From an uncultured Acetatifactor sp. (GTDB lineage: Bacteria > Bacillota > Clostridia > Lachnospirales > Lachnospiraceae): a DNA stretch of 42,600 nucleotides. The stretch lies in NCBI GenBank assembly GCA_947581905.1, contig CANPWC010000001.1:1-42600 (forward strand). The letters run 5' to 3'. Position 1 is the stretch's first letter; each line of letters opens with the position of its first letter. The notes under the pieces were generated by a model. That model was given only the letters and a program-made list of their open reading frames with translations. It was not told where the DNA came from and searched no databases. Positions 11,691-34,181 of the stretch are shown here, in pieces. A program made the translations under genes and the position numbers.

Positions 11691-12752
11691 ATGAGAATCA
11701 GATTAGCGATACTTGAGAAAGACCAAAGCTATTTGACGCGGATCGTATCTGCCTTCAGCAGCAGGTTCGCGGATAAGTTTGAGATTTATTCCTTTACCGA
11801 CAAGGATGTGGCCCTGGCTACGCTGGACAGCGCCAGGATTGACGTGCTTGTGGCGAGCGATGTTTTCGATATTGACGTGAAGGCTTTGCCCAAGAGGTGC
11901 GGCTTCGCTTATTTCGTGGATTCGTTCGGCGTTGACACCATCAACGACCAGGTGGCGATCTGCAAGTTCCAGAAGGCGGAATTGATTTACCGCCAGATTT
12001 TAAGCATTTATTCAGAGAAAGCGGGCAGCCTCTTCGGCATGAAGTCCGACGACGAGAGCACGAAGATCTTCCTGTTCAATTCCGTGAGCGGCGGGACGGG
12101 CGCTTCCTCCATGGCGGCGGCCTGCGCGGTGCATCTTGCTTCCCAGGGCAAGAAAGTATTGTACCTTGACCTGGAGAAGTTCGGCTCCTCCAATTCTTTC
12201 TTCAGCGGGGAGGGGCAGTTCGACCTAAGCGACATCATCTATGCCTTAAAGAGCAGGAAGACCAACCTTTCCTTAAAGCTGGAAAGCAGCGTGAAGCAGG
12301 ATTACAGCGGCGTATACTTCTTCGACGCCCCCAAGGTGGCCCTGGATATGATGGAGCTTGGCGGCGAGGACGTCCTGCAGCTGATCTCCGAGATCAAGAC
12401 GATGGGCGTATATGAATACCTGGTGCTGGACACCGATTTCGCTTTAAATAAGGATAGCTTGAGCCTTGCCCGGCAGGCGATCGCCGTCTGCTGGATCGGG
12501 GATGGCTCCGAGATTTCCAATGAGAAGACCCGCAGGGCGTTCCAGGCGCTTACGATCCTGGAGCAGAACGCGGACCTGCCTCTGCAGAACCGCCTGTATC
12601 TGATCTACAACAAGTTCAGCAACAAGACCAGCACGACCCTGGATGATTTAGGGGTTAAGAGCCTGGGCGGCGCGCCCAAGTACGAGCATGCCACATCGGC
12701 ACAGGTGCTGGAGCGCCTCGCGAAGCTGGAATTGTTCGACAACATCATCTGA
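11691..12752 (+). CDS. TadZ/CpaE-like pilus localisation protein (pseudo-receiver + MinD/ParA-like domain)
   Basis: Atypical receiver N-terminus, ICKFQKA linker, degenerate P-loop SVSGGTGASS, KKVLYLDLE, YEYLVLDT; first gene before tadA. Confidence 0.75.
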   Translation: MRIRLAILEKDQSYLTRIVSAFSSRFADKFEIYSFTDKDVALATLDSARIDVLVASDVFDIDVKALPKRCGFAYFVDSFGVDTINDQVAICKFQKAELIYRQILSIYSEKAGSLFGMKSDDESTKIFLFNSVSGGTGASSMAAACAVHLASQGKKVLYLDLEKFGSSNSFFSGEGQFDLSDIIYALKSRKTNLSLKLESSVKQDYSGVYFFDAPKVALDMMELGGEDVLQLISEIKTMGVYEYLVLDTDFALNKDSLSLARQAIAVCWIGDGSEISNEKTRRAFQALTILEQNADLPLQNRLYLIYNKFSNKTSTTLDDLGVKSLGGAPKYEHATSAQVLERLAKLELFDNII

Positions 12753-12757
12753 CGCGT

Positions 12758-12859
12758 CGCAGAGGGACGCTTGCCTGGCGCGGCGGGATGGATGACGTGT
12801 ATGCCGCAGGCTTAACGGGCGGCATGCCTGCCGCAGAGGTACGCTTGATTTGCCTGGCG
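12758..12859. repeat. imperfect intergenic direct repeat flanking a hairpin
   Basis: CGCAGAGGGACGCTTGCCTGGCG (12758-12780) versus CGCAGAGGTACGCTTGATTTGCCTGGCG (12832-12859), with the stem ATGCCGC...GCGGCAT between them. Confidence 0.6.
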
Positions 12860-12888
12860 GTCCGGATAGATTGGGGGATTGACTACAT

Positions 12889-14127
12889 ATGGATTATGAA
12901 CAAGAGCAACAGTTTGTTGCGGACGTGAAAAGATATGTCACAGAGAACCTTTCCTTAAGCAAGATGGAAGATGATGAGCTGGAGGAGAAGATTGAGGAGA
13001 TCGTGGCGGAGCAGCTGCGGGGACGGTACTGCTCCATCGACCAAAGGGTGTCCATCACCCAGCAGGTCTACAGCTCCATCCGAGGCTTCGGCCTTTTGGA
13101 TTCCATCATCCGGGACGATACGATCACCGAGGTCATGATCAATGGGCCGGACAATATCTTCATAGAGCAGAAAGGACGCCTGTTCAAGCTGGATAAGAAG
13201 TTTGAAAGCCAGCGCCGCTTGGAGGACGTGATCCAGAGGATCGTGGGCCTGGCGGGACGTGAGGTCAACCAGGCGAACCCGATCTGTGACACCAGGCTGC
13301 CGGACGGCTCCCGTGTCAACGTGGTGCTGCCGCCCATCGCCCTGTGCGGCCCGACCCTGACCATCCGTAAGTTCTCCAAGGAGCCGATGACCATAGAGAA
13401 GCTGATCTCCTACGGCTCCATCACCCAGGAGATCGCGGATAAGCTGGAGCTTTTGGTACGCGCGAAGTACAACATCTTCATCTGCGGCGGTACCGGCTCC
13501 GGGAAGACGACTTTCCTGAACGCCTTATCCAATTACATACCGAAAGATGAGCGTGTCATCACGATAGAGGACTCCGCCGAGCTGCAGATCGTCGGCGTGG
13601 AAAACCTGGTGAGCCTGGAGACGAGGAATGCCAATACTTCCGGCGCGGGCGCGATTACGATCAGGGACCTGATCAAGTCTTCCCTGCGTATGAGGCCGGA
13701 GCGGATCGTGGTCGGCGAGGTCCGTGGAGGCGAAGCGCTGGATATGCTGCAGGCCATGAATACCGGACATGACGGCTCCCTGTCCACCGGCCATGCCAAC
13801 TCCACCCATGATATGCTGAGCCGTCTGGAGACCATGGTGCTGCAGGGCGCGGAGGGGCTTCCCCTGGAGGCCATCCGGCAGCAGATCGCGTCTGCGGTGG
13901 ACATCATCATCCACCTGTCCAGGCTTCGTGACAAGTCCAGGAAGACCATGGAGATCACGGAGATCGTGGGCTATGAAGATGGGCAGATCATCTTAAATCC
14001 CCTGTATGTGTTCGAGGAGGACGAGAACAGTACGTTGGATAAGGTATCCGGGAGCCTGAAACGGACGAAGAACCCGATGAAGAACGATTTCAAGCTAAAG
14101 CTGTCCGGCATCAGGACGGAGATTTAA
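12889..14127 (+). CDS. tadA: Tad pilus assembly ATPase TadA/CpaF
   Basis: TEVMING, RLPDGSRVN, Walker A GGTGSGKTT, TIEDSAEL, LRMRPERIVVGEVRG, AMNTGHDGS.STGHAN. Confidence 0.95.
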   Translation: MDYEQEQQFVADVKRYVTENLSLSKMEDDELEEKIEEIVAEQLRGRYCSIDQRVSITQQVYSSIRGFGLLDSIIRDDTITEVMINGPDNIFIEQKGRLFKLDKKFESQRRLEDVIQRIVGLAGREVNQANPICDTRLPDGSRVNVVLPPIALCGPTLTIRKFSKEPMTIEKLISYGSITQEIADKLELLVRAKYNIFICGGTGSGKTTFLNALSNYIPKDERVITIEDSAELQIVGVENLVSLETRNANTSGAGAITIRDLIKSSLRMRPERIVVGEVRGGEALDMLQAMNTGHDGSLSTGHANSTHDMLSRLETMVLQGAEGLPLEAIRQQIASAVDIIIHLSRLRDKSRKTMEITEIVGYEDGQIILNPLYVFEEDENSTLDKVSGSLKRTKNPMKNDFKLKLSGIRTEI

Positions 14128-14137
14128 GGAGAAGGTT

Positions 14138-14998
14138 ATGGGATTATTCAAGAAAGAAACGAAAGTGCAAGAACCTCAGTACTATATGTCATCGACCAAC
14201 ATACCTACCTATAATTACAGGGTGTATTATATGAAGCCTTTGGAAAAGGCGCTGTACTTCCTGTTGGCGTTCGTGGTGGGCGCGGCCGTGGGCTACCTGT
14301 TCTACGGCGGCATCGGCAAGGATGAGTTCGGGCAGCCTACCATGGTGACCTGGGTGCTGAACATCCTCATCCCCTCCGTCGTGGGCATCGCGGCGGGCGT
14401 GCTGTTCATCCCGACCCGGACCAAGGCGATCATCGCGAAGAACCAAACCGAGCTGAACCACCAGTTCCGGGATATGCTGGACGCCCTGACCACCTCCTTG
14501 GGGGCAGGCAAGAACGTCAACGACTCCTTCTTCTCCACTTATGAGGACCTGAAGATCCAGTATAATGAGAACGCGTTCATCTTAAAGGAGCTGGATGTCA
14601 TCCTGGCGGGGATCCACAACAATGTGCCTATTGAGGATGTGCTTTACGATTTCGGCCTGCGCAGCAACAACGAGGACATCTTAAGCTTCGCCAACGTGTT
14701 CAAGATCAGCTACCGCAAGGGCGGCAACATGAAGGACATCATCCGCAACACCCACAGCATCTTGAGCGACAAGATGGAAATCCGGGAGGACATTGAGACG
14801 CTTGTCACCTCCAATAAGACAGAGCAGAACATCATGGTGGTGATGCCCATCGCCCTGATCGGCATCATCAAGATGATGAGCCCGGATTTCGCCAAGAACT
14901 TCGTGACCCCCACCGGCATCATGTCCACGACTTTTTCGCTGGTCATCTTCGTGGTCGCGTACTTCGTGGGCAAGTCCGTATTGGATATCAAGTTGTAG
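14138..14998 (+). CDS. tadB: Tad platform protein TadB (T2SSF family)
   Basis: Two N-terminal TMs, QFRDMLDAL..SL.AG, KGGNM..II and C-terminal TM pair; directly after tadA. Confidence 0.85.
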   Translation: MGLFKKETKVQEPQYYMSSTNIPTYNYRVYYMKPLEKALYFLLAFVVGAAVGYLFYGGIGKDEFGQPTMVTWVLNILIPSVVGIAAGVLFIPTRTKAIIAKNQTELNHQFRDMLDALTTSLGAGKNVNDSFFSTYEDLKIQYNENAFILKELDVILAGIHNNVPIEDVLYDFGLRSNNEDILSFANVFKISYRKGGNMKDIIRNTHSILSDKMEIREDIETLVTSNKTEQNIMVVMPIALIGIIKMMSPDFAKNFVTPTGIMSTTFSLVIFVVAYFVGKSVLDIKL

Positions 14999-15010
14999 GA
15001 GGTGGCGGGC

Positions 15011-15889
15011 ATGACAGGCTTGACGATATTAGACTTTGCAATCATCGCGCTGGGGGCGCTTTCCCTGATAGTCTGGCTCATCTTTTTCCTGAAAGGGAAA
15101 AAGTATAATTCCATGTTCGACGTGTTGGAGGAAAAGGAGTTCCCCCTGAAAGAAATCTACGGCATGGGCTATGCCGTGCTGGAGACGTTCAAGTATCAAT
15201 ATACCGGCAAAAAGGACAGGGAGCTGCGCCAGGAGATGGACGTCCTGTATGGCAATAAATATTCCGAATATTACCTCCGCGTGGTGCATGCGCAGCAAAT
15301 TTCCATCTCCATGACGGTGTTCGTGCTTTCGTTCACCTTCTACGGGCTGACCTCGGAAATCCTGGCGGTGCTCATCGGGTTGATGTTCACTTGGGCCGCC
15401 TACTACTATTACGGCACCTTGACGACGAAGAAGATCAAGGACCGTTCGGACGAGCTGCTCCACGACTTCTCCGAGGTCGTTTCCAAGCTGGCGCTGCTTA
15501 CCAACGCGGGCATGATCCTGCGCGAGGCCTGGCAGGAAGTGGCCATGGGCGGCACGTCCACCATTTACCAGGAGATGCAGGCTTCCGTCAACGACATGAA
15601 CAACGGCATGGCGGATGTGGACGCGATTTATAATTTCGGCACACGCTGCATCATCCCGGAAGTCAAGAAGTTCACCTCCACCATCATCCAGGGCGTCACC
15701 AAGGGCAACAGCGAGCTGACCATGATGCTCCAGGAGCAGAGCAAGGAAGTGTGGCAGATGAAGAAGCAGTTGGTAAGAAGGGAAGGGGAGAAAGCCGCGA
15801 GCAAGCTGATGATCCCCATCTGCATCATGTTCGTGGGAATCTTAGTCATGATCCTGATCCCCATCTTCACCAACCTGGGCGTTTCATAG
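15011..15889 (+). CDS. tadC: Tad platform protein TadC (T2SSF family)
   Basis: KLALLTNAGM..REAW, GEKAASKLMIP and C-terminal TM. RBS GGAGG lies 8 nt before ATG 15011. Confidence 0.85.
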   Translation: MTGLTILDFAIIALGALSLIVWLIFFLKGKKYNSMFDVLEEKEFPLKEIYGMGYAVLETFKYQYTGKKDRELRQEMDVLYGNKYSEYYLRVVHAQQISISMTVFVLSFTFYGLTSEILAVLIGLMFTWAAYYYYGTLTTKKIKDRSDELLHDFSEVVSKLALLTNAGMILREAWQEVAMGGTSTIYQEMQASVNDMNNGMADVDAIYNFGTRCIIPEVKKFTSTIIQGVTKGNSELTMMLQEQSKEVWQMKKQLVRREGEKAASKLMIPICIMFVGILVMILIPIFTNLGVS

Positions 15890-15949
15890 GGCTTTATTGT
15901 AATTTACATACATAAAAGCAAAATAATCCAACGAAAGGAGATGTTACCA

Positions 15950-16180
15950 ATGAGTGTACAGAGTCTTATGGTATTAGGCACGTACGCAAAGATGAAGCTG
16001 AGGGAGTTCTTCACGGATGAGGAAGGCGATGTGAACATCGTTTCCATCGTGGTTTTGATCGGCATCGCGGTCCTGTTGGCGCTGGTCTTCCAGGAGCAGA
16101 TTACGGGGCTTTTGAATTCCTTGTTCGATGTCATAAAGGGGAATGCGACCAGTGCTGTCAGCGGCGGTGGCAGAGAATAA
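15950..16180 (+). CDS. flp: Flp-type major pilin (clostridial Flp1-like)
   Basis: 76 aa; leader ending FFTDEEG followed by hydrophobic helix (DVNIVSIVVLIGIAVLLALVF). Strong RBS AAAGGAG 9 nt upstream. Confidence 0.8.
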   Translation: MSVQSLMVLGTYAKMKLREFFTDEEGDVNIVSIVVLIGIAVLLALVFQEQITGLLNSLFDVIKGNATSAVSGGGRE

Positions 16181-16224
16181 CTCTTAACCTTGATCGGCGT
16201 ATGAGAAGATGCCTTTCGTTACAG

Positions 16225-16328
16225 GCGGCGCCTCCCCTGAAAGGGGAGGGGCTGCCGGTGACGGAAAGGGGCACTTTGGGGGAGACGTTCCCTGCAGGGA
16301 TGACTTTCAGGGAATGCCTCCCATGTGC
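16225..16328 (+). other. two consecutive stable stem-loops downstream of flp
   Basis: GGCGGC-G-CCTCCCCTGAAAGGGGAGG-G-GCTGCC, then GGGAGACGTTCCCTG...CAGGGAATGCCTCCC. No poly-U tail. Confidence 0.65.
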
Positions 16329-16390
16329 TGCCGCGTAAACGTATGGATAAGCGTCCGGCAGCGGGCAAGATGCAGGAAAGGATAGTCAAG

Positions 16391-17050
16391 ATGATAGGAA
16401 AGCTCAAACGGGAATTGACAAAAGAAAAGGGTGCGGTGCAGATCATGGAAGCGTCCATCGTTTTTCCCATCATGTTTATTATCCTTTTCTTTTTGATTTA
16501 CATGGGGAACGCCTTCTATGAGAAGACCCAGATAGAATATGTCGTCAACCATTATGCCATTGAGGGCGCGGCTTATTGCGCGGACCCAATCCTAAGCGCC
16601 ATCAAGGCGAATGGGGCAGTGCCGTCCGTCAGCAATTTGGAGTCCGAGCCTTACCGCTATCTGTTCGGCGTAGGCGATGTGCCAAGCGATATTGCGCGTA
16701 AAGTGAAAGAAACGATCAATGGGAAAGCGTTTTCGTTCTTCAGCAACATGTCCCCGACCGTCACGGCAAGGGCAAATTTCAACAATAAGATTATTTATTC
16801 CACGTTTTCCGTGGAAGCGGACTATCAGATCCGCTTCCCCATCAGCTTCCTGGGGAGGAGCACGCCTCCTGTCGTAGACGGCAGCGTGCGTGCGGAGATT
16901 CCCGTATGTGACACGCCGGAACTCATCCGGAACACGGACATGGTCATAGATTTCATGCAGCAGTTTGAATTTGGCAGGAAGTTTGCCGAGGGCGTGTCCA
17001 ACTTATTTAGTAAGATCAACGGCTTTATCAGAGAATTTGCCGGGCAATAG
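16391..17050 (+). CDS. TadE-like minor pilin
   Basis: Class III signal LTKEKG/AVQIMEASIVFPIMFIILFFLI and C-terminal DTPELIRNTD motif. Confidence 0.8.
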   Translation: MIGKLKRELTKEKGAVQIMEASIVFPIMFIILFFLIYMGNAFYEKTQIEYVVNHYAIEGAAYCADPILSAIKANGAVPSVSNLESEPYRYLFGVGDVPSDIARKVKETINGKAFSFFSNMSPTVTARANFNNKIIYSTFSVEADYQIRFPISFLGRSTPPVVDGSVRAEIPVCDTPELIRNTDMVIDFMQQFEFGRKFAEGVSNLFSKINGFIREFAGQ

Positions 17051-17064
17051 TGAGGTAGACATAT

Positions 17065-20000
17065 ATGAAAGCATTTCAGAACCAAAGAGGCGCGGTATCC
17101 ATCTTCCTGGTCTTGATCTTAGTGCCGATGCTGACCGTGTCGGCGCTCTTCGTGGATGCCAGCAAACTGTCCTTGGCCCGGTCCGTCAGCGCTTCCGCCA
17201 CGGATCTGGCGCTGAATACGGCGCTGACCAATTATGATACGAAGCTTAAGGATATGTACGGCTTGTTCGCCACGGCCCAGGATATGGACGATCTGTTTGG
17301 GCGGCTGGAGGATTATTATCGCACCTGCATCACATCCTCAGGGGTGGATGAGGAGGACGCGGAGTCTTATACGCAGAAGATCATGGCCCAGCTGGGACTG
17401 GTCGCGGACAGCGGGAATGTGGCGGACCTGCTGAATATGGAACTGATGGATTTCAGCGTCGAGAAATATAAGGATGCCAACCTGGCGAACCCTACCATCT
17501 TAAAGAAGCAGATCATAGACTTCATGAAATATCGCGCCCCCATCAATACGGGGATGAAGTTTGTGGCTGCCTTGGAATCTTTTACCACGCTGGGCAAGCA
17601 GACGAAGATGATCGAGGGCAGGACGAACTACTACAAGGAACAGCAGACTGCCATGGAGTATGCGCAGGCTGCCTGGTCGGAGATCAATGCTTACAACCGA
17701 AGTGAATTTATTACCAATGCCAGCTTCTTTTCTTTGTTAAAGACCGCGTTTGACGGCTATCAGGTACAGTATGAGGGGACGGCGGATGCGCAAAGGACGG
17801 ACGGCTTTGCCGGCAAGACCATCCGGGACCTGTATGGTAACGAGAATCGGGATATGCGGGGTTATGTGACCTATAATTATTATGCCGAATCCGTTGAAGA
17901 AGATGTGGGGAACGGCGTGAAAGAAATGATTCCGAGGTTTTATACGAATAGCGATAAGACGAGCTGGGACCTTGCATATATTGACATGACGACTTACTCT
18001 GAAGACGAGCCGGCCAATGCAGACGATATCAGGAGGACCTTGAAGAACTACTATGACGCGGAAGCCGCCTATGTGCAAGCAGAAAGCAACCTGCTGCCCA
18101 TCGATTTTGATAATTTAGGCGCGGTCTATGGCCTCCAATACCTGATGCAGACGGATCGGGGCAAGTATTATTCGGCCTGGACCTCTGCCATGAGGACGCT
18201 TTACCAGCGCTATAGCGAGATGCGGCATGCCGTGGCTTTTAAAGGCCAGGATGGCTTTATGACCTACACGGCCGATTTTGATGGTGATGGCGTGGAAACG
18301 TCTTATGGAGATTACTATAACCAGTTTTGTGTAAATTATGAAACACACTCAGGCATCTTTGATACAAATGTGACGAAGATGACGCCCACCCTTAAGAATT
18401 TTGCCAATGCCGTAGGTAACACGCAGACATCCACGACGGATACGAACAATAAGATCGTGGCTAATTATGAGCAGATCAGTAAGTATAGGAAAGCGATTGC
18501 CGACGCGGTGCCTCATCTGGTAAATGCGGTGGAACAGCTTGGGAAGCTTTATGATTGTGTCAAGCCTGGCGGGACGCTGGAGCAGAAAGCGGACGCCTGG
18601 CAGAAGACCACGGAGGATTCGGACGTGAAAGATACCTCCATGGCGAAGCAGGATCAGGCGGAGATCAAGGATGCTTCCTCTTATTTGGATGCGGACGAGG
18701 TGCAGAAGCTGATCGACCGTATCAATAACGTCATCCCGCACCTGCAAGACATGTTGACCCAGATTGACAGCTACAAGTTCTTCGGGACCTATATCGGGGA
18801 GATCAGTGATTATAATTCCCTGAAAAATCTGTTGAAATCGAGTATTGGTGATTATGAGCTGCTGCATGTCCCGACCACGACGGCTGAATTGAACGCCAAG
18901 GTAAGCGGATGGGTGAGCGGGAAGTTCGTCATTGGAAAGCCGGTGGACATTACCTGGAACAAGGGGGACAGCGCGGCGGACCTGACCATCAGCAATAAGC
19001 CGAAGTTCTATGATTACCTGCATTCCAAGTTCAATGCCGCGGGGACCGGCGACACGGATACGACTGAGAAAAAGGAGGATCAGGAAAACGGCGAGAACCT
19101 TTATAACAAAGTAAAGAGCAGTTTTAGCTCAAATGCCAGCGGAAGCAAGGATGAAGCGAAAAAGGGCAACATTTCTAATTCCCATGAGATTTCGGGGCTG
19201 TCAAACTTGCCTTCCAGTGGGAGCAATTACACGACGAAGAGCATGGACCTGACGCCGGATGAAAATTCCGCTTCTTCCGCTAGCGGGATTTCTTCGTTGT
19301 TTTCCCAGGGATTGTTAAACGCGATCGCCGACCTGGCCACGGACCTTAGGGACAACCTATATGTATCAGATTATATCCTGAGCATGTTCAGCTATGACAC
19401 GCTGGTCAAGGAGTATGAGAAAAATCATGACGGCGAGGAGGCCGGGGAAGAGGATATTAAGACCCTGACCTTGAATCCCATCAATGCCAAGTATAATTAT
19501 GCTTATGGCAAGGAAGTGGAATATGTCATTTACGGGGGAAAGAACGCAGACAACCTGGCGAAAGCCTATGGGACCATCTTCGCCATCCGTTTCGTGTTCA
19601 ATGTGATATACGCTTTCATGAGCTCTGAAGTGCGAAGCGAGGCCTTGGCTATCGCCACGCCGATTTCTGCGGCGACCCTGGGCATCATCCCGGTGCCGTT
19701 GATCCAGGCCATCCTGATCATTGGAATCGCCTGCTGTGAATCGGGCATTGACCTGGTGGAGCTTCGAGACGGAGAGAAGGTGCCCCTATTTAAGAGCAAG
19801 GATACCTGGCGTACTTCTATTAGCGGCATGGTGACTCTTGCGAAGGAGGAAACCGCGGAATTTTTGAAAGAAACTGGTAAAAAGGTAATTGACGCGGGCA
19901 CGGAGAAGTTGACAGAGCTCCTGGATATGGCGGATGAGGAGCTGACGAAATTCATTAACGATAATACAGAAGAATTTGAGAACCGTGTGGGCGGCGCTTT

Positions 20001-20877
20001 TGATGATCTGATCACCCGCCATGTCGAAGTGGCCATGCAAAAGGTAAGCACCCTGGTGGAGAATGCGCTCAATGAGAACCTGATGGACGACAGCGGGACG
20101 GATATTGTGACCGCCACTGTCAATGATACCTTAGATGGCCTGGATGAATGGCTGGCCCAGGAGGGTCCGAACCAGTCGGAGATCGTTTACCAGATTGAGC
20201 AGCAGGTGGTGCAGCTCTTACGTGAGAATTCGGGAGCGGCCCTTCGTCCTTATGTGCAGGCGGTCCAGGATGTCCGGAATGGAATAACGGGCAGTATTGA
20301 AGAAGCAAGTAATAAAATTTTGGATCAGCTCAATTCCATTAAGGGTAAAATCACTGGCAAAATCTCCGAGGTAGGTGGGATAGTAGAACAATATAAGGGA
20401 GAGATGGTCTCGAAAGTGAAAGAGTCTGCAAAAGAAGGCGCTGGAAAGCTGAAAGATACCTTGAATGAGCAGCTTGACAGCATCTTCGACAATGCCAGCG
20501 CGGATCCCAGCGTCGGCAGTACGGGAGGAGAGGGCGGAGATGGCTCCGGCTTGTCGTCCCTGATCGCGTTCGCTTACAGCGATTATTTGCGGCTGTTTTT
20601 GATCATTGGCTTGTTCGCGAACCAGGAATCCGTCTTGAAGCGGACGGCGGACGTCATCCAGGTGAATATGGCGATGCAGCCTCCTGTAAGCGACCCGTCC
20701 AGCGCCACGTTATCAGATTACGTCCTAAGCAAGTCCTCTGTCTATGTGCAGGTGACTTCCACGATCCAGGTAAAGCCCACCATGCTGGCGCTGCCGCTGT
20801 TTGCGGATGTGGAGAACAATCCGGCTTCGGATAGCGGCTGGTATACGTTTACTTCCTCGGACATCAGAGGATATTGA
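17065..20877 (+). CDS. giant TadG-like minor pilin/adhesin (1270 aa, DUF5702-like C-terminal region)
   Basis: NQRG/AVSIFLVLIL, L..YD..L...YGLFA, QI.DFMKYRAP, EVEYVIYG..N, and YSDYLRLFL motifs typical of firmicute Tad loci; family name from recall. Confidence 0.72.
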   Translation: MKAFQNQRGAVSIFLVLILVPMLTVSALFVDASKLSLARSVSASATDLALNTALTNYDTKLKDMYGLFATAQDMDDLFGRLEDYYRTCITSSGVDEEDAESYTQKIMAQLGLVADSGNVADLLNMELMDFSVEKYKDANLANPTILKKQIIDFMKYRAPINTGMKFVAALESFTTLGKQTKMIEGRTNYYKEQQTAMEYAQAAWSEINAYNRSEFITNASFFSLLKTAFDGYQVQYEGTADAQRTDGFAGKTIRDLYGNENRDMRGYVTYNYYAESVEEDVGNGVKEMIPRFYTNSDKTSWDLAYIDMTTYSEDEPANADDIRRTLKNYYDAEAAYVQAESNLLPIDFDNLGAVYGLQYLMQTDRGKYYSAWTSAMRTLYQRYSEMRHAVAFKGQDGFMTYTADFDGDGVETSYGDYYNQFCVNYETHSGIFDTNVTKMTPTLKNFANAVGNTQTSTTDTNNKIVANYEQISKYRKAIADAVPHLVNAVEQLGKLYDCVKPGGTLEQKADAWQKTTEDSDVKDTSMAKQDQAEIKDASSYLDADEVQKLIDRINNVIPHLQDMLTQIDSYKFFGTYIGEISDYNSLKNLLKSSIGDYELLHVPTTTAELNAKVSGWVSGKFVIGKPVDITWNKGDSAADLTISNKPKFYDYLHSKFNAAGTGDTDTTEKKEDQENGENLYNKVKSSFSSNASGSKDEAKKGNISNSHEISGLSNLPSSGSNYTTKSMDLTPDENSASSASGISSLFSQGLLNAIADLATDLRDNLYVSDYILSMFSYDTLVKEYEKNHDGEEAGEEDIKTLTLNPINAKYNYAYGKEVEYVIYGGKNADNLAKAYGTIFAIRFVFNVIYAFMSSEVRSEALAIATPISAATLGIIPVPLIQAILIIGIACCESGIDLVELRDGEKVPLFKSKDTWRTSISGMVTLAKEETAEFLKETGKKVIDAGTEKLTELLDMADEELTKFINDNTEEFENRVGGAFDDLITRHVEVAMQKVSTLVENALNENLMDDSGTDIVTATVNDTLDGLDEWLAQEGPNQSEIVYQIEQQVVQLLRENSGAALRPYVQAVQDVRNGITGSIEEASNKILDQLNSIKGKITGKISEVGGIVEQYKGEMVSKVKESAKEGAGKLKDTLNEQLDSIFDNASADPSVGSTGGEGGDGSGLSSLIAFAYSDYLRLFLIIGLFANQESVLKRTADVIQVNMAMQPPVSDPSSATLSDYVLSKSSVYVQVTSTIQVKPTMLALPLFADVENNPASDSGWYTFTSSDIRGY

Positions 20878-20945
20878 CCTGCCTGTGCCGTCGGCGTAAG
20901 GGAGGAATCAAGCGCCGCCCAATTGGCGGCAGAATGCGAGGAAAG

Positions 20946-22331
20946 ATGGATACGCGACAGAAGAGAGAACAAGGGTCTATCACGATAGAGGCCACGGTTT
21001 CCTTGTCCATGTTCATGTTTACCATTGTGACGGTCTTGACCCTGGTGAACATCTGCATGATCCAGGAAAGGATCGGCGTGGCGATCAGTGCCACGGCGAA
21101 GGAACTGTCCCAGTACAGTTACCTGTATTCCCTGACAGGCTTCCCGCAGAGCGAGGCGGAGCTTGCGGCGGCAGGCAAGAAGGACACGGAAGAAATGAAT
21201 GAAATCATGGGCAACATCAGCGCGGTATTCTCTTCCATGGAAGACATGGAAGGGACGGTTGCGGAATTGCCGAACTCAGACTTGTCCGAGGAAGCCTTGA
21301 CCGGCGCATGGGATTCCATTAATTCATCCCTTGACGACATCGAGGCAAGCGGGCAGGCGATCGAGAACTCCATAGAGGCCATTGCGGACGATCCCTCCAA
21401 GCTGATTTTCGGGATTGCCAAGCTGGCTGCCAGCGAAGGCTTGGAAATGGCGAAGTCCCGCCTGATCGCGGCCCCCTTGGCGAAGTTTTTCTGTAAGAAG
21501 CACTTGTGCGACAGCGGCAAAGATACGGAGGCTTTCCTGCGGCAGTTGGGCGTGGTCCCTTCTGCAAGCGGCAAGTATCTGGATGGGCTGGATTTCACCC
21601 AATCCTCCCTTTTCCCTTATGGGTCCAATGAGATCACCATCCGGGTTTCCTATGATGCCAAGGTCATACCGTTGCTTCCGTTGGATTTCACGTTCCACTT
21701 CCGTCAGACGGCCATTACCCATGGCTGGCTGTCAGGAGAGGTCACTTATAAGTCGTCGGAGGATGTGGCGGAGACCATTACAAAGGCGAATGAGAGCATA
21801 TGGACGCAGATGGAGCCTTCTGAGCGTGCCAAATTCATCCGAAAGCAAGTGACCGCGGACATGGGGGATGAAGGATATCTGAAAGTCAGCAGCTTTATCG
21901 AAAAAGGAAATAACAGCGGCATCGACCTTTATAACCCGGAGACCAATGAATTTGTGGCGATCCATTCTTTCAACCCGCTTGGTGAAGCCGAGACGTTGGA
22001 GAATCTGAATGATGATGTCTTACAGTCGACGATCGAGGAGTATTGCGGTTCCATTACCGCGACGACCAGTGGCAAGACCCAGGTCTATACCAGCAAGGGA
22101 CAGACAGATCCTCATGACTGCACTGGCGCCACCAATAGGGTCGTCCTGGTCATCCCGGAGGATGAAGGGTTTAAGGAAAAGATGGAAGAGATCATCGCGA
22201 AGTCTGAGAAGCGCGGCGTGACGATCGAGCTGGTGACAGGATATGGCAACGGCGCGCCCAAGACGGTGGTTTCCAAGAATCCGGAGCCTGCGGGCGAGGA
22301 AGCCTCTCCGGAACCTGCGGGAGGCGAATAA
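20946..22331 (+). CDS. TadE-like minor pilin with C-terminal nuclease-toxin-like domain
   Basis: REQG/SITIEATVSL prepilin motif with E+5, and ELSQYSY. The C-terminal about 150 aa resemble the CdiA-CT EC869-type fold (see findings). Confidence 0.75.
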   Translation: MDTRQKREQGSITIEATVSLSMFMFTIVTVLTLVNICMIQERIGVAISATAKELSQYSYLYSLTGFPQSEAELAAAGKKDTEEMNEIMGNISAVFSSMEDMEGTVAELPNSDLSEEALTGAWDSINSSLDDIEASGQAIENSIEAIADDPSKLIFGIAKLAASEGLEMAKSRLIAAPLAKFFCKKHLCDSGKDTEAFLRQLGVVPSASGKYLDGLDFTQSSLFPYGSNEITIRVSYDAKVIPLLPLDFTFHFRQTAITHGWLSGEVTYKSSEDVAETITKANESIWTQMEPSERAKFIRKQVTADMGDEGYLKVSSFIEKGNNSGIDLYNPETNEFVAIHSFNPLGEAETLENLNDDVLQSTIEEYCGSITATTSGKTQVYTSKGQTDPHDCTGATNRVVLVIPEDEGFKEKMEEIIAKSEKRGVTIELVTGYGNGAPKTVVSKNPEPAGEEASPEPAGGE

Positions 22332-22336
22332 GGAAG

Positions 22337-23068: not shown

Positions 23069-24388
23069 ATGAAGAACTACAGAAACTTGTTACCCATCGT
23101 GTTGATCGTGTTGATGCTGGTCTCATGGTTCAAGCTGGCTAGCTCCGCTACGGAAAGCGCGGATGAAGTCACGGACTACCTGAAGATCGCCCGGGAGAAT
23201 GCCGCCCAGGGGATTACCAAGACGGCGATCGATAATTACGTGGCCGCGCTGGCGATCGAGCCGGACGTGGACGTCTATGTGGAAGTGGCCGAGTATTACA
23301 AGTCCCAGGGCAATAAGAATGACTGGCAGAATTGGTGCGAAATCTTCCTGGAGAAATACCCGACGGAGCCGAAAGCCTATGACTGCAGCCTGGAGGCGTA
23401 TTTGTCAGCGGAAGATTATCCGCAGTGCTTCGAAATCCTGGAGACCGCTTCCAAGAGGAGGCTGTCCTCGGAATACATGACGCAGACCGCGGAGCAGATC
23501 GCCTACGTGTTTGATTACGAATATGGCTCTTTCCAGGACGTGGGCGTCTACAGCAATAATTTCTGCGCCATCCAGAAGAACGATAAATGGGGCTTCATCA
23601 ACCGCCTGGGCGACATCGAGATCAACTGCAAGTACACGACCGTAGGCGCTTACACCGGCAGCGGCCTTGCGCCGGTGGTGGACAAGGACGGCGATGTGTA
23701 CCTCATTGACAAGGATGGCAATAAAATGGCGGTGCCTCCCGCGGAATCCGGCTATCAGGAGCTGGGCCTGTTGGTGGAAGAGAAGATCGCGGCCAAGAGG
23801 CCGGATGGGAAATACGAGTATGTAAGGTACGCGGACGCCATGTGGCAGGAAGTGTTCGGCAATTATGACTATGCCTCATCCTTTAACGGCGGGGTGGCTG
23901 CCGTAAGGAACGGGAACCAGTGGTCCCTGATTGATGCGGAGGGCAAGGAACTGACGCAGACGAAGTATGAGGACGTGAAGCTGGACGAGAAGCAGATCGC
24001 TTATCGGAATGAGCGCCTCTTCGTGAAAACGGGCGGCTCCTACGTGATGGTGGACATGGCCGGCAACCAGATCGGCACCCAGACCTTTGAGGACGCGAAA
24101 GTGTTCGGCGACACGACTTTCGCCGCGGTCAAGATCGGCGGGAAGTGGTGCTTCATCGATAAGGACGGCAACCTGAAGTCCGACAAGACCTATGAAGACG
24201 CCAGGTCTTATGTGAACGGCATGGCGGCCGTGCAGGTCGACGGGAAATGGGGCTTTGTGGACGCGGACGAGGAACTTAAGATTGCCGCGCAGTTTGACGG
24301 GGCGAAGGATTTCAATGAGAAAGGCAGCTGCTTTGTGAAAAACGGCGACACCTGGGAACTCTTGAAACTATATAGACTGAACAGATAG
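23069..24388 (+). CDS. exported TPR-like + WG-repeat protein
   Basis: Signal/TM helix, helical repeats, then KWGFINRLG, KWCFIDKDG and KWGFVDAD repeats with F/Y..G.AAV spacers. Confidence 0.82.
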   Translation: MKNYRNLLPIVLIVLMLVSWFKLASSATESADEVTDYLKIARENAAQGITKTAIDNYVAALAIEPDVDVYVEVAEYYKSQGNKNDWQNWCEIFLEKYPTEPKAYDCSLEAYLSAEDYPQCFEILETASKRRLSSEYMTQTAEQIAYVFDYEYGSFQDVGVYSNNFCAIQKNDKWGFINRLGDIEINCKYTTVGAYTGSGLAPVVDKDGDVYLIDKDGNKMAVPPAESGYQELGLLVEEKIAAKRPDGKYEYVRYADAMWQEVFGNYDYASSFNGGVAAVRNGNQWSLIDAEGKELTQTKYEDVKLDEKQIAYRNERLFVKTGGSYVMVDMAGNQIGTQTFEDAKVFGDTTFAAVKIGGKWCFIDKDGNLKSDKTYEDARSYVNGMAAVQVDGKWGFVDADEELKIAAQFDGAKDFNEKGSCFVKNGDTWELLKLYRLNR

Positions 24389-24399
24389 GAGAGAGGAAC

Positions 24400-26277
24400 A
24401 TGAGTAATTTTTCTTATGAGAACCAAGGAAACAATACTTTTCTGGTGTATGCGCTGGAAGAAAACGAAACCATCGATTCCATGGCGTTAGGGATGCTTAC
24501 GAACAACCGTATTCCGGGCCTTGCGCCTGCCATGTTCATGCAGATGAACGATACCAGGTTCATCAAGTACAACATCTCCTCCAAGGTCCAGGCGAGCCAG
24601 TTCTTCATGGGCCCGGTCAACCGCAAGAGGCTTTTGGGCGTGTTCGGCGGCATCGTGGACGCGATGCTTTCCGCGGAGGAATATATGATCGACCCCAATA
24701 CGCTCATGTTGGATCTGAATTACATTTTCGCGGATGTGAGCACCTGTGACACGGTGATGATCTGCCTGCCCGTCATGGGGGCGCAGTCCTCCGGCGTGGA
24801 CCTGGGGGCGTTTTTCCGCAACATCATTTTCACGACCCAGTTCGACCAGACGGAGAATTGTGACCATGTGGCGCTGCTCATCAACTACCTGAACAGCACG
24901 CAGGTGTTCTCCTTAACGGATTTCAAGGCTGTTTTGGACAGCATCGCAGGAAACGCGCCGAGGGCGGCGGCTCCTGCCCCCGCGCCGGCTCAGGCTCCCG
25001 TCCAGCAGCCTGCCCCTTCCCAGCCTGCCCAGCAGCCGTTCTACGGACAGCCTGCGCAGCCTAAGCCCGCGCCTACGCCCGCGCCCAAGCAGACGCCTCC
25101 TGTCCAGAACGTGCCACCCGTGCCGCCCGCGCAGCCTAAGAATGCCGCGCCGTTCGGCCTTGGGGCGCAGAACCAGAAGCAGAACGCTACGGTGGACATG
25201 TCCCGCCAGATGAACAATACGGTACCGAACATCCCGAACGTTCCGAATATTCCAAATGTCCCGAACGTCCCGAATGTCCCGAACATCCCCATTCCCGGCA
25301 GGGCCCCCGCGCAGCCTGCGGGAGCGCCGCAGCCTATGCCCGGCATGCCCGCCCCTGGCGCGCAGCCAAGCGGCGAGAAGCCCATGAGCGTGTTCTACCT
25401 GTTACAGCATTATAACAAAGAGAATGCGGAGATTTACAAAGCGCAGAAAGCGGAGAAGAAAGCCGGCAAGGGTGCAAAAGCGCCCGCGCAGCCTGCGGGA
25501 GCGCCGCAGCCGTTCGCACCGGCAGGCCCCGCTGGCGGCAACTTTGCCATGCCGGGGGCCCCGAAGCAGGGAGGCTTCGCGATCCCTGGACAGCCTGCGC
25601 CCGGACCGATGAGCATCCCTCAGCCGATGAACGCCGGCCAGCCCGGCATGCCGCCGCAGGGGCAGCCGAACATGGCACGCCCGATGCCGCCGCAGGGTCA
25701 GCCTAACATGGCACGTCCCATGCCGTCGCAGGGGCAGCCGAACATGGCACGCCCGATGCCGCCGCAGGGTCAGCCTAACATGGGCCGTCCAATGCCGCCC
25801 CAGGGCCAGCCTAGCATGCCGCAGCCCGCTCCTGCGCCTACGCCCGCGCCGCAGCCCATGCCTCGTCCGGTCATCCCCAATATGCCTTTGGGCGCTGATT
25901 TCGGGGAGACCAGCTTCGTCGATGTGGCGGATGATGATTCCAGCACGGTCATCATGGGAATGGGACAGACCCAACAGCAGTTTTCGCCGCACCTGATCCA
26001 TAAGAGCAACAACGAGAAGATCCCCATCAACAAGGAGATTTTCCGCATTGGCAGGGACGCTGACTTTAATGATTACGTGGTGACGAACAACCAGAGCGTA
26101 GGCCGCAGCCACTGTCATATTCTGACCAGGAATGGGGAATATTTTATCGTGGATGATAATTCCAAGAACCATACCTACGTGGATGGCGTGAACGCCCCCT
26201 CCGGATGCGAAGTCAAGATTTCCCACGGCCAGAACATCCGGCTGTCGAATGAAGAATTTGAATTCAGATTGTTTTAG
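24400..26277 (+). CDS. FHA-domain protein (DUF6382-like N-terminal domain, Pro/Gln-rich linker, C-terminal FHA)
   Basis: GMLTNNRIPGL..YNISSK..EEYMID..L.LD..YIF N-terminal domain and FRIGR...VGRSH...SKNHTYVDG FHA. Confidence 0.85.
   Translation: MSNFSYENQGNNTFLVYALEENETIDSMALGMLTNNRIPGLAPAMFMQMNDTRFIKYNISSKVQASQFFMGPVNRKRLLGVFGGIVDAMLSAEEYMIDPNTLMLDLNYIFADVSTCDTVMICLPVMGAQSSGVDLGAFFRNIIFTTQFDQTENCDHVALLINYLNSTQVFSLTDFKAVLDSIAGNAPRAAAPAPAPAQAPVQQPAPSQPAQQPFYGQPAQPKPAPTPAPKQTPPVQNVPPVPPAQPKNAAPFGLGAQNQKQNATVDMSRQMNNTVPNIPNVPNIPNVPNVPNVPNIPIPGRAPAQPAGAPQPMPGMPAPGAQPSGEKPMSVFYLLQHYNKENAEIYKAQKAEKKAGKGAKAPAQPAGAPQPFAPAGPAGGNFAMPGAPKQGGFAIPGQPAPGPMSIPQPMNAGQPGMPPQGQPNMARPMPPQGQPNMARPMPSQGQPNMARPMPPQGQPNMGRPMPPQGQPSMPQPAPAPTPAPQPMPRPVIPNMPLGADFGETSFVDVADDDSSTVIMGMGQTQQQFSPHLIHKSNNEKIPINKEIFRIGRDADFNDYVVTNNQSVGRSHCHILTRNGEYFIVDDNSKNHTYVDGVNAPSGCEVKISHGQNIRLSNEEFEFRLF
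25225..25287 (+). repeat. 9-bp coding tandem repeat x7 (P-N-I/V)
   Basis: CCGAACATC CCGAACGTT CCGAATATT CCAAATGTC CCGAACGTC CCGAATGTC CCGAACATC. Confidence 0.9.
25648..25818 (+). repeat. 36-bp coding tandem repeat x4.75 (MPPQGQPNMARP)
   Basis: Units start at 25648, 25684, 25720, 25756 and 25792 (partial). Confidence 0.92.
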
Positions 26278-26288
26278 GTGCATGCTTT

Positions 26289-27059
26289 ATGGATTTTTAC
26301 ATTTCTGCCACGACGGATGTCGGCATCAAAAGGGATGTGAACCAGGACAGCTTGTTTGTGCGTAAATTGGAGACGCGGACCGGCGACATGGTGTTTGCCG
26401 TGCTCTGCGACGGGATGGGCGGCCTTAAGTTCGGCGAGGTCGCCAGTTCCAGCATAGTCAACGCGTTCTCCGATTGGATGTATACGTACTTGCCGAACCT
26501 GTCCCAGGCCCCCCTAGAGGACCATGTGGTCCGTTCCCATTGGGAATCGGTCATTACCGCCCAGAACAGCAAGATCCGGGAGTACGGCTGGAAGCACGGC
26601 TGTACCACGGGGTCTACCGTGACTGCGCTGCTTTTGACGCAGCAGAGGTATTTCTTGCTCAATATCGGGGATTCCCGTGCTTACGAGATCGATGGTTCGG
26701 TAAGGCAGATGACCACGGACCATACGGTCATCGAGAATGAGATCCGCATGGGCAACATGACCGAGGAACAGGCGATGAAGTCCCCCATGAGGAGCGTGCT
26801 GACACGGTGCGTGGGAGTGGAGGAAAGCGTAAGCCCCGATATGTTTTTCGGGGATGTGAAGCGGGACGCCGTCTATATGCTGTGTTCGGACGGCTTCCGG
26901 CACGCCCTTTCCAAGGAGGAGATCCAGGCGAAGCTGTACCGGGAAGTGCGCGGCGATGCGGCGCAAATGAAACGGCAGGAGGAATATTTGGTTGAGCTTA
27001 ACAAGTCTAGGGGAGAAACTGATAACATCTCCGTTGTTACAATATATGTTGGAGCATAA
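26289..27059 (+). CDS. PP2C/PPM-family Ser/Thr protein phosphatase
   Basis: TDVGIKR..NQDS, CDGMGG, NIGDSRAY, TTDH, LCSDG and DNIS are all present. Confidence 0.93.
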   Translation: MDFYISATTDVGIKRDVNQDSLFVRKLETRTGDMVFAVLCDGMGGLKFGEVASSSIVNAFSDWMYTYLPNLSQAPLEDHVVRSHWESVITAQNSKIREYGWKHGCTTGSTVTALLLTQQRYFLLNIGDSRAYEIDGSVRQMTTDHTVIENEIRMGNMTEEQAMKSPMRSVLTRCVGVEESVSPDMFFGDVKRDAVYMLCSDGFRHALSKEEIQAKLYREVRGDAAQMKRQEEYLVELNKSRGETDNISVVTIYVGA

Positions 27060-27060
27060 G

Positions 27061-27306: not shown

Positions 27307-27362
27307 GTTTCCGGACCAGCTTCGCAGGGTAGGAAGCGTCCGGAAGGGAAAGGAAGTTAGTT

Positions 27363-27548
27363 ATGGGCTTACTGATGAATGAGATGCTGTTTTACGGCGG
27401 GATCGCGCTGGCGGCGGCGGCGCTGCTGGCCGGGCTCATCTTCTTTTGCATATCCCAGGTCATAGGAACGCGCTTAATGGCGCAGCTCGACTCGGAATAC
27501 GGGCCGAGGGTGGATGAGAAGAAGCAGAAGAAAACGAAAAAGCGGTAA
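27363..27548 (+). CDS. small single-pass membrane protein
   Basis: AAGGAAG upstream; TM helix followed by a basic tail; fills the operon gap before the kinase. Confidence 0.65.
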   Translation: MGLLMNEMLFYGGIALAAAALLAGLIFFCISQVIGTRLMAQLDSEYGPRVDEKKQKKTKKR

Positions 27549-27569
27549 ACAAGGTAAAGGAATCAGGAC

Positions 27570-30434: not shown

Positions 30435-30454
30435 GAAAGGAGGGTTTCCTTAAG

Positions 30455-33400: not shown

Positions 33401-34054
33401 GTTGGACAGGGAACCCATACCATAGGTATTGAGTTCCGTCAAGCGGATACGGATCTGTTGATGCGTGCCGCACAGAACTACGAGTTGACCGAGACGACGA
33501 CTACTCCTCCTCAGGAGCAGCAGCCGAGCACCCCGACCACTCCCAGCACCCCGTCGACTCCCAGCACGCCCAGCACGCCGAGCACTCCCAGCACGCCGAG
33601 CACGCCCAGCACCTCTACGCCTGCCCCTGCGGCAAGCGAACCTGCCGCGGCTCCTGCCCCGACGACCGTCTCCTATACCGTGCAGCGCGGCGACACCTTG
33701 TCCAAGATTGCCGCTAACCTGCTTGGAGACAGCAAGCTGTGGAGGCAGATCTACGATGCGAACAAGGACGTGATCAGCAATCCGAACAGGATTTATCCTG
33801 GCATGGTCCTTACCATCCAAGTGGCAGGAGCGGAAAGCACTGCTGAGGAGCAAACCCCGGCCGAGACGACTACGGAAGTAGTTGGCGAGACCTATGTGGT
33901 GCAGTCCGGCGATAGCCTTTGGAAGATTGCCAAGAAGGCATATGGCGATGGCCACCTTTGGGAGACCATTTTCAATGCCAACACGGCGACGATCAGGACG
34001 CCTGGAAGCATTTATCCTGGACAGGAGCTTGTGATTCCTGCCGTTGAGGAGTAA
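30455..34054 (+). CDS. large secreted surface protein with Ig-like domains, PST linker and two LysM domains
   Basis: Signal peptide ending ARA/EE; DFSAGPVQYTVAAEDG; GELPPGMEL..NGEVYGVPTEVGSYTFTV Ig-like motif; YTVQRGDTLSKIA and YVVQSGDSLWKIA LysM motifs. Confidence 0.88.
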   Translation: MKSIKRGIAVLLAALLVMPSLPARAEETNPPAVMADVVQFNTGNCAYSVTQPGSASDKVSFVSGNDIVSVSPSEVPADAEVVAYPEVYFEADGSYTINIPEDNPFFPYEVQFTCNGEVSNQWFMTPDSTVVVGGHTFRVNAYLDGTKVTQMSLKVAGKDVIVYPEAKEFTDGSGIMPVSLLPLQQKSLTVDLTGLTPIELTNVSIGTLLAGATAITDTSKAMWTLSGDNSYTISGTTDSIDLSYNVYSSSKYLEIIVGEANQLAPDNTRYSVRLTTTSAPENWLNPVVYVQAEDGARSNVELTSTSYYDYTSSSTASMSRELYLTVPYESLDQNESAYVSLSIDPATFGGTLPHDTVEVYEGNYKTAAEAAAGKNITAQIMNVDMTQPNAGYVMQRYESKWITLVSYQGGNAIGCLPMYLYLTTTSSGVTFSPYSMYYMDENKSRYSVVDTFSSTYSGGTRTYTLTYYADYPVKQAYYFKGINYYKNGNTDNNSITAIYTAPVASIAEASSLNYENIRDKVLSPDGFLVDFSTPVTFTIFVGADGPDQEMYRCVMQAVQGTNPYNQPSSSTYLNFNGFADGTDKYTYNGFYSVPVDYDSYADNNYLTMLVGKDVDLTHIAPLFYTSDGAQVHTAGSSTPEVSGESFHDFSAGPVQYTVAAEDGKNQKNYWLQIVKAVEGPGKLYINSLADPDAKTTTDESGVIRSTREVLIDRYHNDEHNIFVANIGTEAIPDLKLDLQSDAVVVDDYWTLKGGYDLNGFTKDVILDRSYSLDNLAMIRLKQKEGVEDGTEVSGTLTIKSGDTVLMVLTLTGTVGDPTITTKELPAAVKYVPYGPVIQNSNKYSWNKVSYVLQRGELPPGMELKENGEVYGVPTEVGSYTFTVRMNNSYTSFSSSVREFTLVVNENTNENVEQATDTGYDLIERVDGATLAASTEEGQLVVSEGLFPEFKKVYLDGRELTVDEFSAESGSTRITIKTQTLTSVGQGTHTIGIEFRQADTDLLMRAAQNYELTETTTTPPQEQQPSTPTTPSTPSTPSTPSTPSTPSTPSTPSTSTPAPAASEPAAAPAPTTVSYTVQRGDTLSKIAANLLGDSKLWRQIYDANKDVISNPNRIYPGMVLTIQVAGAESTAEEQTPAETTTEVVGETYVVQSGDSLWKIAKKAYGDGHLWETIFNANTATIRTPGSIYPGQELVIPAVEE
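33524..33613 (+). repeat. 9-bp coding tandem repeat x10 (P-S/T-T linker)
   Basis: Encodes PSTPTTPSTPSTPSTPSTPSTPSTPSTPST. Confidence 0.9.
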
Positions 34055-34089
34055 GGCTTTCGGAGCCTTGAGGCCTTGAAGGGAACAGG

Positions 34090-34181
34090 AAAGGGGACCC
34101 GTCCACCCGGTGGCGACACCGGGCGGGCAGGTTCCTTTTTTTATACCGGATGGGCGGGGCGGATGGGCGGGTCCTTTTTTT
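34090..34181 (+). terminator. intrinsic terminator of the Tad operon with duplicated 3' arm
   Basis: AAAGGGGACCCGTCCACCCGGTG-GCGA-CACCGGGCGGGCAGGTTCC-T7, followed by a second arm GGATGGGCGGGTCC-T7. Confidence 0.8.

Follow-up and report, generated by a model that had tools for sequence, protein, structure and literature searches.

Assembly of an envelope machine can be gated by the logic of a kinase, a PP2C phosphatase and an FHA protein, as in the H1 type VI secretion system (T6SS) of Pseudomonas with its PpkA, PppA and Fha1. Here we analysed a stretch of 42,600 nucleotides (nt) from an uncultured Acetatifactor sp. (contig CANPWC010000001.1; hereafter the window, by which we mean the whole stretch), in which 16 plus-strand genes (positions 11691-34054) join a Tad pilus machine to a DUF6382-FHA protein (hereafter the adaptor), a PP2C phosphatase, two small transmembrane (TM) proteins, a receptor kinase and a secreted surface protein. 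The locus is real and conserved and it is probably functional, and the reading that we favour, at somewhat better than even chances, is that of an accessory Tad (type IVc) cluster gated by its own threonine kinase and PP2C through an adaptor predicted to bind TadZ.

The nearest known module, judged from sequence, is the accessory set of the T7SS (type VII secretion system) subtypes T7SSe, T7SSf and T7SSj of Bacillota, itself only predicted, and not PpkA/PppA/Fha1 or the Myxococcus Kil system that the first-pass annotation had named. According to the main-text sections of Garrett et al. 2024 (PMC11217815), the T7SSe accessories are predicted to be TseJ (DUF6382 with a C-terminal FHA domain and no TM segment), TseF (a PPM phosphatase), TseD (a membrane kinase with a helical ectodomain), TseH and TseK (two small single-TM proteins) and TseI (a large immunoglobulin (Ig)-like protein with a C-terminal TM), and control by threonine phosphorylation was proposed for this set; in T7SSf a DUF6382-FHA protein is paired with a TadZ-like receiver-domain ATPase, and Tad genes were noted beside T7SSg/h. 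Neither the module on Tad nor the fold of DUF6382 is described in those sections. The window's adaptor and PP2C have the make-up of TseJ and TseF, whereas its kinase ectodomain matches PQQ_2/WD40 instead of being helical and its surface protein ends in LysM, with no match to the Ig-repeat family of the T7SS locus. The two small single-TM proteins are like TseH and TseK in architecture, but their comparison with the profile of the anchor family of T7SS loci (E 0.47 and 0.029) stayed below a match. T7SSe needs EssC, WXG100 and YukD, none of which is among the window's genes; EssC and WXG100 profiles run on the window's genome (95% complete) gave one FtsK-type match on another contig and no WXG100, and we rejected a T7SS in the cluster for want of either protein. 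Kil, as set out in the main text of PMC8460266, is a Tad-like machine with FHA proteins that has an FHA-fused ATPase and a secretin, whereas the window's TadA is 412 amino acids (aa) long without FHA and has no secretin gene beside it; the words kinase and phosphatase are absent from that main text. The H1-T6SS proteins and PpkA-TssL-Fha of Agrobacterium offer analogy only: the window has no T6SS genes, comes from a monoderm and carries a different adaptor. In the open-access literature we met with no account of a kinase/PP2C/FHA module carried by a Gram-positive Tad cluster, and what is new here is a second sensor type, the evidence that cassettes were exchanged, the predicted pseudokinase fold of DUF6382 and a predicted TadZ contact.

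Kinship with T7SS loci extends to single genes. A run in Agathobacter rectalis (NZ_CP143948), assigned to a T7SSe-like kind by its architecture, encodes an Ig protein, PP2C, kinase, small TM protein, DUF6382-FHA protein, WXG100, toxin/immunity, yukD and essC. Its PP2C is 45% identical to that of the window (another T7SS-locus PP2C reaches 43%) and falls within the starred set of 11 rows that holds the window's PP2C, while the two kinases are 32% identical over the N-terminal 400 aa only. T7SS-linked PP2Cs sit at three places among the Tad-linked PP2Cs; in this set of rows G277, a T7SS locus, bears a wrong context label. By these comparisons the switch appears as a portable module that shares common descent with Gram-positive T7SS loci. 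Two hybrids were also seen: in L155, Tad minor pilins, DUF6382-FHA and PP2C run directly into essC and WXG100 genes, and L156 holds PP2C, kinase, Ig protein, DUF6382-FHA, TadZ, yukD and essC. The A. rectalis record NZ_CP143948.1 (L194/L195), filed as a 252-kb plasmid, carries nusG, secE, rpmG and fliD and may be a chromosome fragment, and its T7SS locus adjoins a tetracycline ribosomal-protection gene.

With TadA, TadB/TadC, Flp, TadE/TadG, a prepilin peptidase and TadZ, the cluster has the genes by which a monoderm Tad/type IVc pilus is recognised (Table 1). Gene calls and Pfam upheld the 16 co-oriented genes of the first-pass annotation, their identities and their order, tadZ-tadA-tadB-tadC-flp-tadE-tadG-like-tadE-peptidase-WG-FHA-PP2C-two small TM-kinase-LysM, with matches to the TadZ-like receiver, T2SSE, T2SSF, Flp1_like, TadE, DUF5702/Tad and Peptidase_A24 at the pilus end and to WG repeats, DUF6382 plus FHA, PP2C_2, Pkinase and two LysM at the signalling end. 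At E 0.01 Pfam gave nothing for TadB, for the second TadE or for either small TM gene, and these four were assigned by position, hydrophobic segments and homologues. TadZ of the window matches PDB 3FKQ along its whole length (E 1.3e-101). This entry, TadZ of Eubacterium rectale, which reportedly stems from Xu et al. in 2012, likewise has a receiver-like domain and an ATPase; the DUF6382 partner is predicted here.

A search of 300 genomes from the window's family turned up a TadA-like gene in 269. The nearest named relatives are Lachnospiraceae and other gut Clostridia. The DNA downstream of tadA was sampled for the best-scoring matches plus about 35 weaker ones on long contigs, a part of all matches. 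A tree of 79 TadA proteins comprised 40 loci with a short TadC (accessory) and 39 with a long TadC (resident). Among complete loci, a PP2C follows the DUF6382-FHA gene in 29 of 33 of the short-TadC kind versus 0/37 of the long-TadC kind, and a kinase lies downstream in 26/33 (just upstream of the cluster in three more) versus 1/37; eight of the short-TadC loci were first found by the kinase search and also ranked in the TadA list. The WG-repeat protein marks the accessory class in the same way (29/33 versus 0/37). DUF6382 itself, mostly with FHA, was present in every complete Tad locus of the family that we examined, in both classes. On contig C3 (L011:6061-15693) the genome of the window carries another Tad locus. 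It is of the resident class, which seems near-universal in the family, and holds DUF6382-FHA without kinase or phosphatase. Outside the family, 14 of 16 DUF6382 loci from a phylum sample were clear Tad clusters, five with a kinase and two with a PP2C directly behind. From the side of the phosphatase, the 80 nearest relatives out of 567 confirmed PP2Cs included 47 after Tad genes, one in a Tad-T7SS hybrid and one in a T7SS locus, and a kinase lay within four genes after the PP2C in 71/74. The linkage survives rearrangement in three loci (G060, G270 and G331). The prediction that signalling genes would be syntenic with Tad elsewhere was therefore borne out by the neighbourhood survey, in many genera and families.

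The enzymes of the switch look competent. K38, E54, D136, K138, N141 and D154 of the kinase are invariant across 15 orthologues, and the Gly loop, K, E, HxD-K-x-x-N, DFx and xPE are invariant or nearly so in all 15, the motif set expected of an active Hanks-type Ser/Thr kinase. Its layout comprises the kinase domain, a Thr-rich insert, one TM (312-330) and an extracellular PQQ/WD40-like propeller region, assigned solely from Pfam PQQ_2/WD40 matches (single-sequence ectodomain model with a predicted local distance difference test score, pLDDT, of 38.7). The metal ligands of the PP2C are conserved. Three kinase types occur among such loci, namely the propeller receptor of about 960 aa found in the window, a 565-aa type and a TPR type. 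Small TM protein 2 immediately precedes the propeller kinase in 18/18 cases, and small TM protein 1, with four homologues in related loci and a conserved Thr (T-x-E-L/M-P) in its tail, is a candidate for a kinase substrate at which FHA docks. The linkers of accessory FHA proteins show a 6.2-fold enrichment of acidic T-x-x-aliphatic motifs, and the small-TM tails that go with the 565-aa kinase type one of 7.6-fold. The "complete" kinase-phosphatase-FHA circuit of the first-pass annotation thus keeps its catalytic residues in both enzymes, but its FHA pocket is non-canonical (see below).

The adaptor has no TM and unites its N-terminal domain and FHA on one soluble protein. A model of DUF6382 (residues 1-185, 100-row alignment) reached a pLDDT of 95.6; its top Foldseek match was TraF-N (8cba, E 6.6e-6), its best VIA match the pseudokinase 6cpy (Z 13.2, root-mean-square deviation 3.4, 181 residues aligned), and it matched Rv3910 (3uqc) at Z 11.3. 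The DUF6382 profile had no match among PDB sequences and the domain no Pkinase match in Pfam. DUF6382 is therefore predicted from the model to be a shortened two-lobed protein-kinase fold without catalytic motifs, i.e. a pseudokinase. The N-terminal domain of TraF is described, in sections of PMC13037476, as an EssB/YukC-like pseudokinase, and the parts of PMC11217815 and PMC13037476 that deal with T7SSb show a comparable arrangement, a pseudokinase scaffold (EssB/YukC) with an FHA domain (EssC/YukB) at an envelope machine; TraF of pIP501 and MviN with FhaA of M. tuberculosis share this likeness to DUF6382-FHA. Unlike in EssB/YukC, TraF and MviN, pseudokinase and FHA are fused and soluble in the window, stand beside a putatively active kinase and phosphatase, and have TadZ as predicted partner.

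This partnership emerged from complex prediction. TadZ with DUF6382 scored 0.62 versus 0.00 for the best of three controls, with 100% contact agreement between runs and a partner pLDDT of at least 86; the score mark is reached by 116/157 solved complexes and by 2/215 mismatched pairs, rates that hold only roughly here as the alignments were of our own making. The predicted interface involves K92 of TadZ and M32, N36 and Y95 of DUF6382, and conservation is higher in the columns of the interface than in the other columns (p 0.004 and 0.02). DUF6382 is thus predicted to bind the TadZ receiver domain, which would link signalling to the pilus physically. To our knowledge no such complex has been solved, and a pass through model memory accordingly seems unlikely. 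Where tadZ does not precede tadA it adjoins the DUF6382-FHA gene (7/7 loci, two of them beside essC), an adjacency that was the easier to see as several of the seven loci were centred on the neighbouring PP2C. The assignment of the FHA protein to the circuit, as first proposed, gains from the predicted tie to TadZ but has to be widened, as the protein belongs to the core of both Tad classes, even where no kinase is present.

The receiving end of the switch is variable. The roughly 1000-aa body of the surface protein has no sequence match in PDB. The propeller kinase is followed by this same protein in 11/18 cases, most of the others being cut by contig ends, and the protein was found in 5/300 family genomes, all with the propeller kinase, by a search that missed two known copies. 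Four copies are anchored at the C-terminus by LysM, others by cell-wall repeats, a sortase-type signal or SLH (the non-LysM types were assigned by reading C-termini). LysM, which the first-pass annotation had made a defining part, turned out to be exchangeable, one of four wall anchors, and LysM as the sensor was rejected because four different anchors occur on the same body. Behind the 565-aa kinase come, instead, a small, motif-rich TM protein and a giant protein with Ig repeats. The cultured Anaerocolumna xylanovorans DSM 12503 (L120) is one carrier of a short-kinase cassette. A single origin for the PP2Cs of propeller-kinase loci was rejected by the approximately unbiased test (58 rows, p-AU 7.7e-6), from which 35 of 49 Tad-linked short-kinase rows had been dropped at random and PP2Cs with an unclassified or no kinase omitted, and whose "solo" class includes cut contigs. 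The nearest groupings of TadA and PP2C from the window are with loci bearing the 565-aa kinase type. The sensor end (propeller kinase, small TM protein and surface protein) has thus been exchanged repeatedly.

In the mechanism that we favour, the propeller domain and its partner surface protein would detect when the cell touches a surface or another cell. The kinase would then phosphorylate acidic T-x-x-aliphatic motifs in its own insert (T206), in small TM protein 1 and in the adaptor linker (T504/T516), and FHA would dock at the phosphorylated membrane site, bringing TadZ, and via TadZ also TadA, to the TadB/C platform. The pilus would be built where the signal arrives, and the PP2C would reset the switch.

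Several observations weigh against gating of this kind. T-x-x-aliphatic motifs persist in resident adaptors (4.7-fold), which have no kinase encoded nearby, and in the insert of the propeller kinase they give a weak signal (7/18 sequences, 2.8-fold). At a profile E of 0.47 we rejected the view that small TM protein 1 is an established member of the family of motif-rich anchors. The TadZ-DUF6382 score is the confidence of a model run on alignments of our own making, and the FHA pocket of the window carries Gly in place of the Ser expected to bind phosphothreonine. Support for the root split among TadA proteins is weak (77), the kinase is unlinked in 4/33 accessory loci (G050, G047, G107 and G212), and the genomes are related rather than independent, the counts showing conserved linkage. 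The adaptor is retained in resident loci that have no kinase nearby, and some of these loci lack its FHA domain; a pilus can therefore apparently do without the circuit or use the housekeeping kinase. Finally, among the 65 PP2C relatives that could be assessed, 16 lack Tad genes in at least 5 kb upstream (15 of the 80 were too short to judge).

This last count also speaks for a different, rather unlikely reading, in which the signalling genes are a self-contained mobile unit that controls the surface protein and shares the Tad promoter without controlling the pilus. Such a unit would fit the confinement of the surface protein to genomes with the propeller kinase and the fact that resident Tad loci work without a kinase/phosphatase pair. 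Three stand-alone cassettes of FHA, PP2C, kinase, small TM and Ig-protein genes (L119, L130 and L143), which lie directly behind a phage-type integrase, look mobile and fit it as well. An independent passenger is harder to square with PP2Cs that follow the TadA subgroups while the kinase type changes, with a linkage that is kept when the cassette moves upstream of tadZ, and with a signal-reading adaptor predicted to bind TadZ. Moreover, resident Tad loci are equally available landing sites, and none of the 37 holds the PP2C.

Attachment is the default function of Tad pili, and targeted attachment is the most likely output of the window's pilus. It is improbable, though marginally less so than the output discussed next, that the cluster is a contact-triggered pilus weapon or kin-recognition device. 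In such a device an exchangeable receptor-kinase cassette would determine which neighbour sets off assembly, the pseudokinase-FHA adaptor shared with T7SS would place TadZ at the contact, and variable tip pilins, paired with genes for lipoprotein immunity, would act on the target cell. Lower still is our estimate for the same phosphorylation gate serving interbacterial attack, as a counterpart of Kil with a toxin in TadG-like or TadE2 and lipoprotein immunity. For attack speak the same switch in toxin-secreting T7SS loci, the existence of hybrids such as L155, and an unassigned gene of 215-295 aa, mostly with a lipobox, that follows TadG in 15/76 loci. A CDI_toxin_EC869_like C-terminal domain, of the nuclease family of CdiA EC869, also occurs on two TadE-type pilins related to TadE2 (L014:10704-11783 and L009:5673-6830). 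Yet in the window neither pilin gene is followed by a lipoprotein gene or any other candidate for immunity, and its own TadE2 extension lacks the lysine of the S-x-K motif. The TadE2-family profile matches 4g6u at E 6e-4 with two Pfam-positive rows included and at E 1.5-4 when these are held out; the resemblance to this PD-(D/E)XK-type nuclease fold is a lead only. Kelch matches from the search that gave 4g6u were set aside as short repeats. Known toxin domains in TadG-like proteins were rejected (0/41 scanned), and TadG is as near to its closest relative lacking a lipoprotein (L171, 42%) as to the one that has it (L136, 41%).

In G163 (L059, G163:C4:300509-317151) at least eight paralogous genes for lipoproteins of about 250 aa stand in tandem after the TadG-like gene, with a repeat of the 3' end of TadG in front of each, next to a 940-aa partial TadG copy; the array resembles an immunity array and would count in favour of attack. 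In L172 the S-x-K motif of TadE2 is intact, and an unassigned gene of 327 aa comes next.

The FHA pocket bears on what the adaptor does. Pockets mostly read K-S-R-H-N or R-G-x-H-N, the second form occurring in 11/14 propeller-kinase loci and in the window (R-G-R-H-N, with R, H and N kept), and phosphothreonine binding by the R-G form is uncertain. We consider it quite improbable that FHA is a phosphorylation-independent scaffold like that of T7SSb EssC, the adaptor being structural and the kinase aiming at TadZ, TadA or a regulator: the Ser-to-Gly pocket, a DUF6382 of the same fold class and the T7SSb precedent, where sections of PMC11217815 and PMC13037476 describe EssC FHA binding the EssB/YukC pseudokinase, would allow it, but wherever Gly occurs the first position of the pocket is Arg (the aligned rows include no K+G) and the pocket retains His and Asn, as if the phosphate site had been retuned and not lost, and the Thr motifs are kept in the linker and in small TM protein 1.

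The cluster may be expressed as one unit. With gene starts picked by ribosome-binding-site (RBS) support, the 15 intergenic gaps measure 136, 10, 12, 60, 210, 14, 68, 5, 12, 11, 11, 1, 56, 21 and 20 nt; ten are of 1-21 nt, three of 56-68 nt and two of 136 and 210 nt, in agreement with the spacing first reported. The promoter proposed upstream is well placed in an AT-rich gap, from which position it draws its support, but promoter-like sites are not enriched over chance in the region (11 found versus 12.3 expected). The proposed terminator does fold as a hairpin with a U-run but is absent from the list of the consensus terminator scan. A partial second copy of this hairpin, running to 34181, can pair with its left arm and lies just before the promoter-like site (34186-34214) of the next gene, which encodes a SEC-C methionine aminopeptidase. 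The hairpin in the flp-tadE gap has no U-run and was equalled in stability by 0/200 shuffles; it may set the pilin level above that of the downstream genes, stepping expression down. No terminator was found between the upstream helix-turn-helix (HTH) gene and tadZ; this gene had a single homologue among the fetched loci, adjoining a T7SS-linked kinase (G043:C31), and was rejected as a conserved part of the cluster on that ground. Further upstream lies an ordinary block (2116-7666) with a CdaR-type regulator, ftsE, ftsX, an M23 peptidase and an S41 protease.

Table 1. Features of the Tad cluster and its flanks (positions in the window)
Feature	Positions	Strand	Basis and remarks
XRE-type HTH regulator	10268..11605	+	Pfam; co-oriented, 85 nt upstream of cluster
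Sigma-A-like promoter candidate, TTGATT-17-TATAAT	11625..11653	+	10/12 matches
tadZ, atypical receiver domain and ParA/MinD-like ATPase, 353 aa	11691..12752	+	PF21194 E 4e-47
Assembly ATPase tadA/cpaF (412 aa) of the accessory TadA group	12889..14127	+	PF00437 E 1e-60; tree
tadB platform protein, 3 hydrophobic segments	14138..14998	+	Homologous to TadC and resident copy
tadC platform protein, short type (~290 aa), accessory-class marker	15011..15889	+	PF00482
flp major pilin	15950..16180	+	PF16982 E 9e-14; start by RBS
flp-tadE gap with very stable RNA hairpin	16181..16390 (210 nt)	+	-103 kcal/mol, z -5.8
tadE minor pilin 1	16391..17050	+	PF07811
Large TadG-like minor pilin (DUF5702), 1270 aa, variable middle	17065..20877	+	PF18960 E 5e-31, PF13400
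tadE minor pilin 2 with C-terminal extension	20946..22331	+	Weak likeness to CdiA EC869-type nuclease folds
Prepilin peptidase, TadV-like	22337..23056	+	PF01478
Membrane-anchored WG-repeat protein	23069..24388	+	PF14903 E 5e-34
Adaptor: DUF6382 (1-185), Pro/Gln linker (T504, T516 motifs), C-terminal FHA	24400..26277	+	Pfam, alignments
PP2C/PPM phosphatase	26289..27059	+	Metal-binding D20, D41, D128, D201, D245
Small single-TM protein 1, 81 aa	27061..27306	+	RBS 6 nt upstream
Small single-TM protein 2, 61 aa	27363..27548	+	Directly before propeller kinase
Hanks-type non-RD receptor kinase, 954 aa	27570..30434	+	Pfam, alignment
Secreted surface protein, 1199 aa	30455..34054	+	~1000-aa conserved body, Pro/Thr linker, two LysM
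Terminator-like hairpin and U-run	34087..34143	+	Folding, region z -2.45

The question of how Gram-positive Tad pili are positioned and switched on is one for which this locus offers a concrete and testable wiring. DUF6382 gains a predicted fold and a predicted partner, which would carry over to Tad loci and to several type VII subtypes. As 269 of 300 family genomes carry a TadA-like gene, gut Clostridia are therefore a large, unstudied reservoir of Tad machines, and a sensor cassette passing between pili and toxin secretion would, if true, represent a general plug-in controller for envelope machines.

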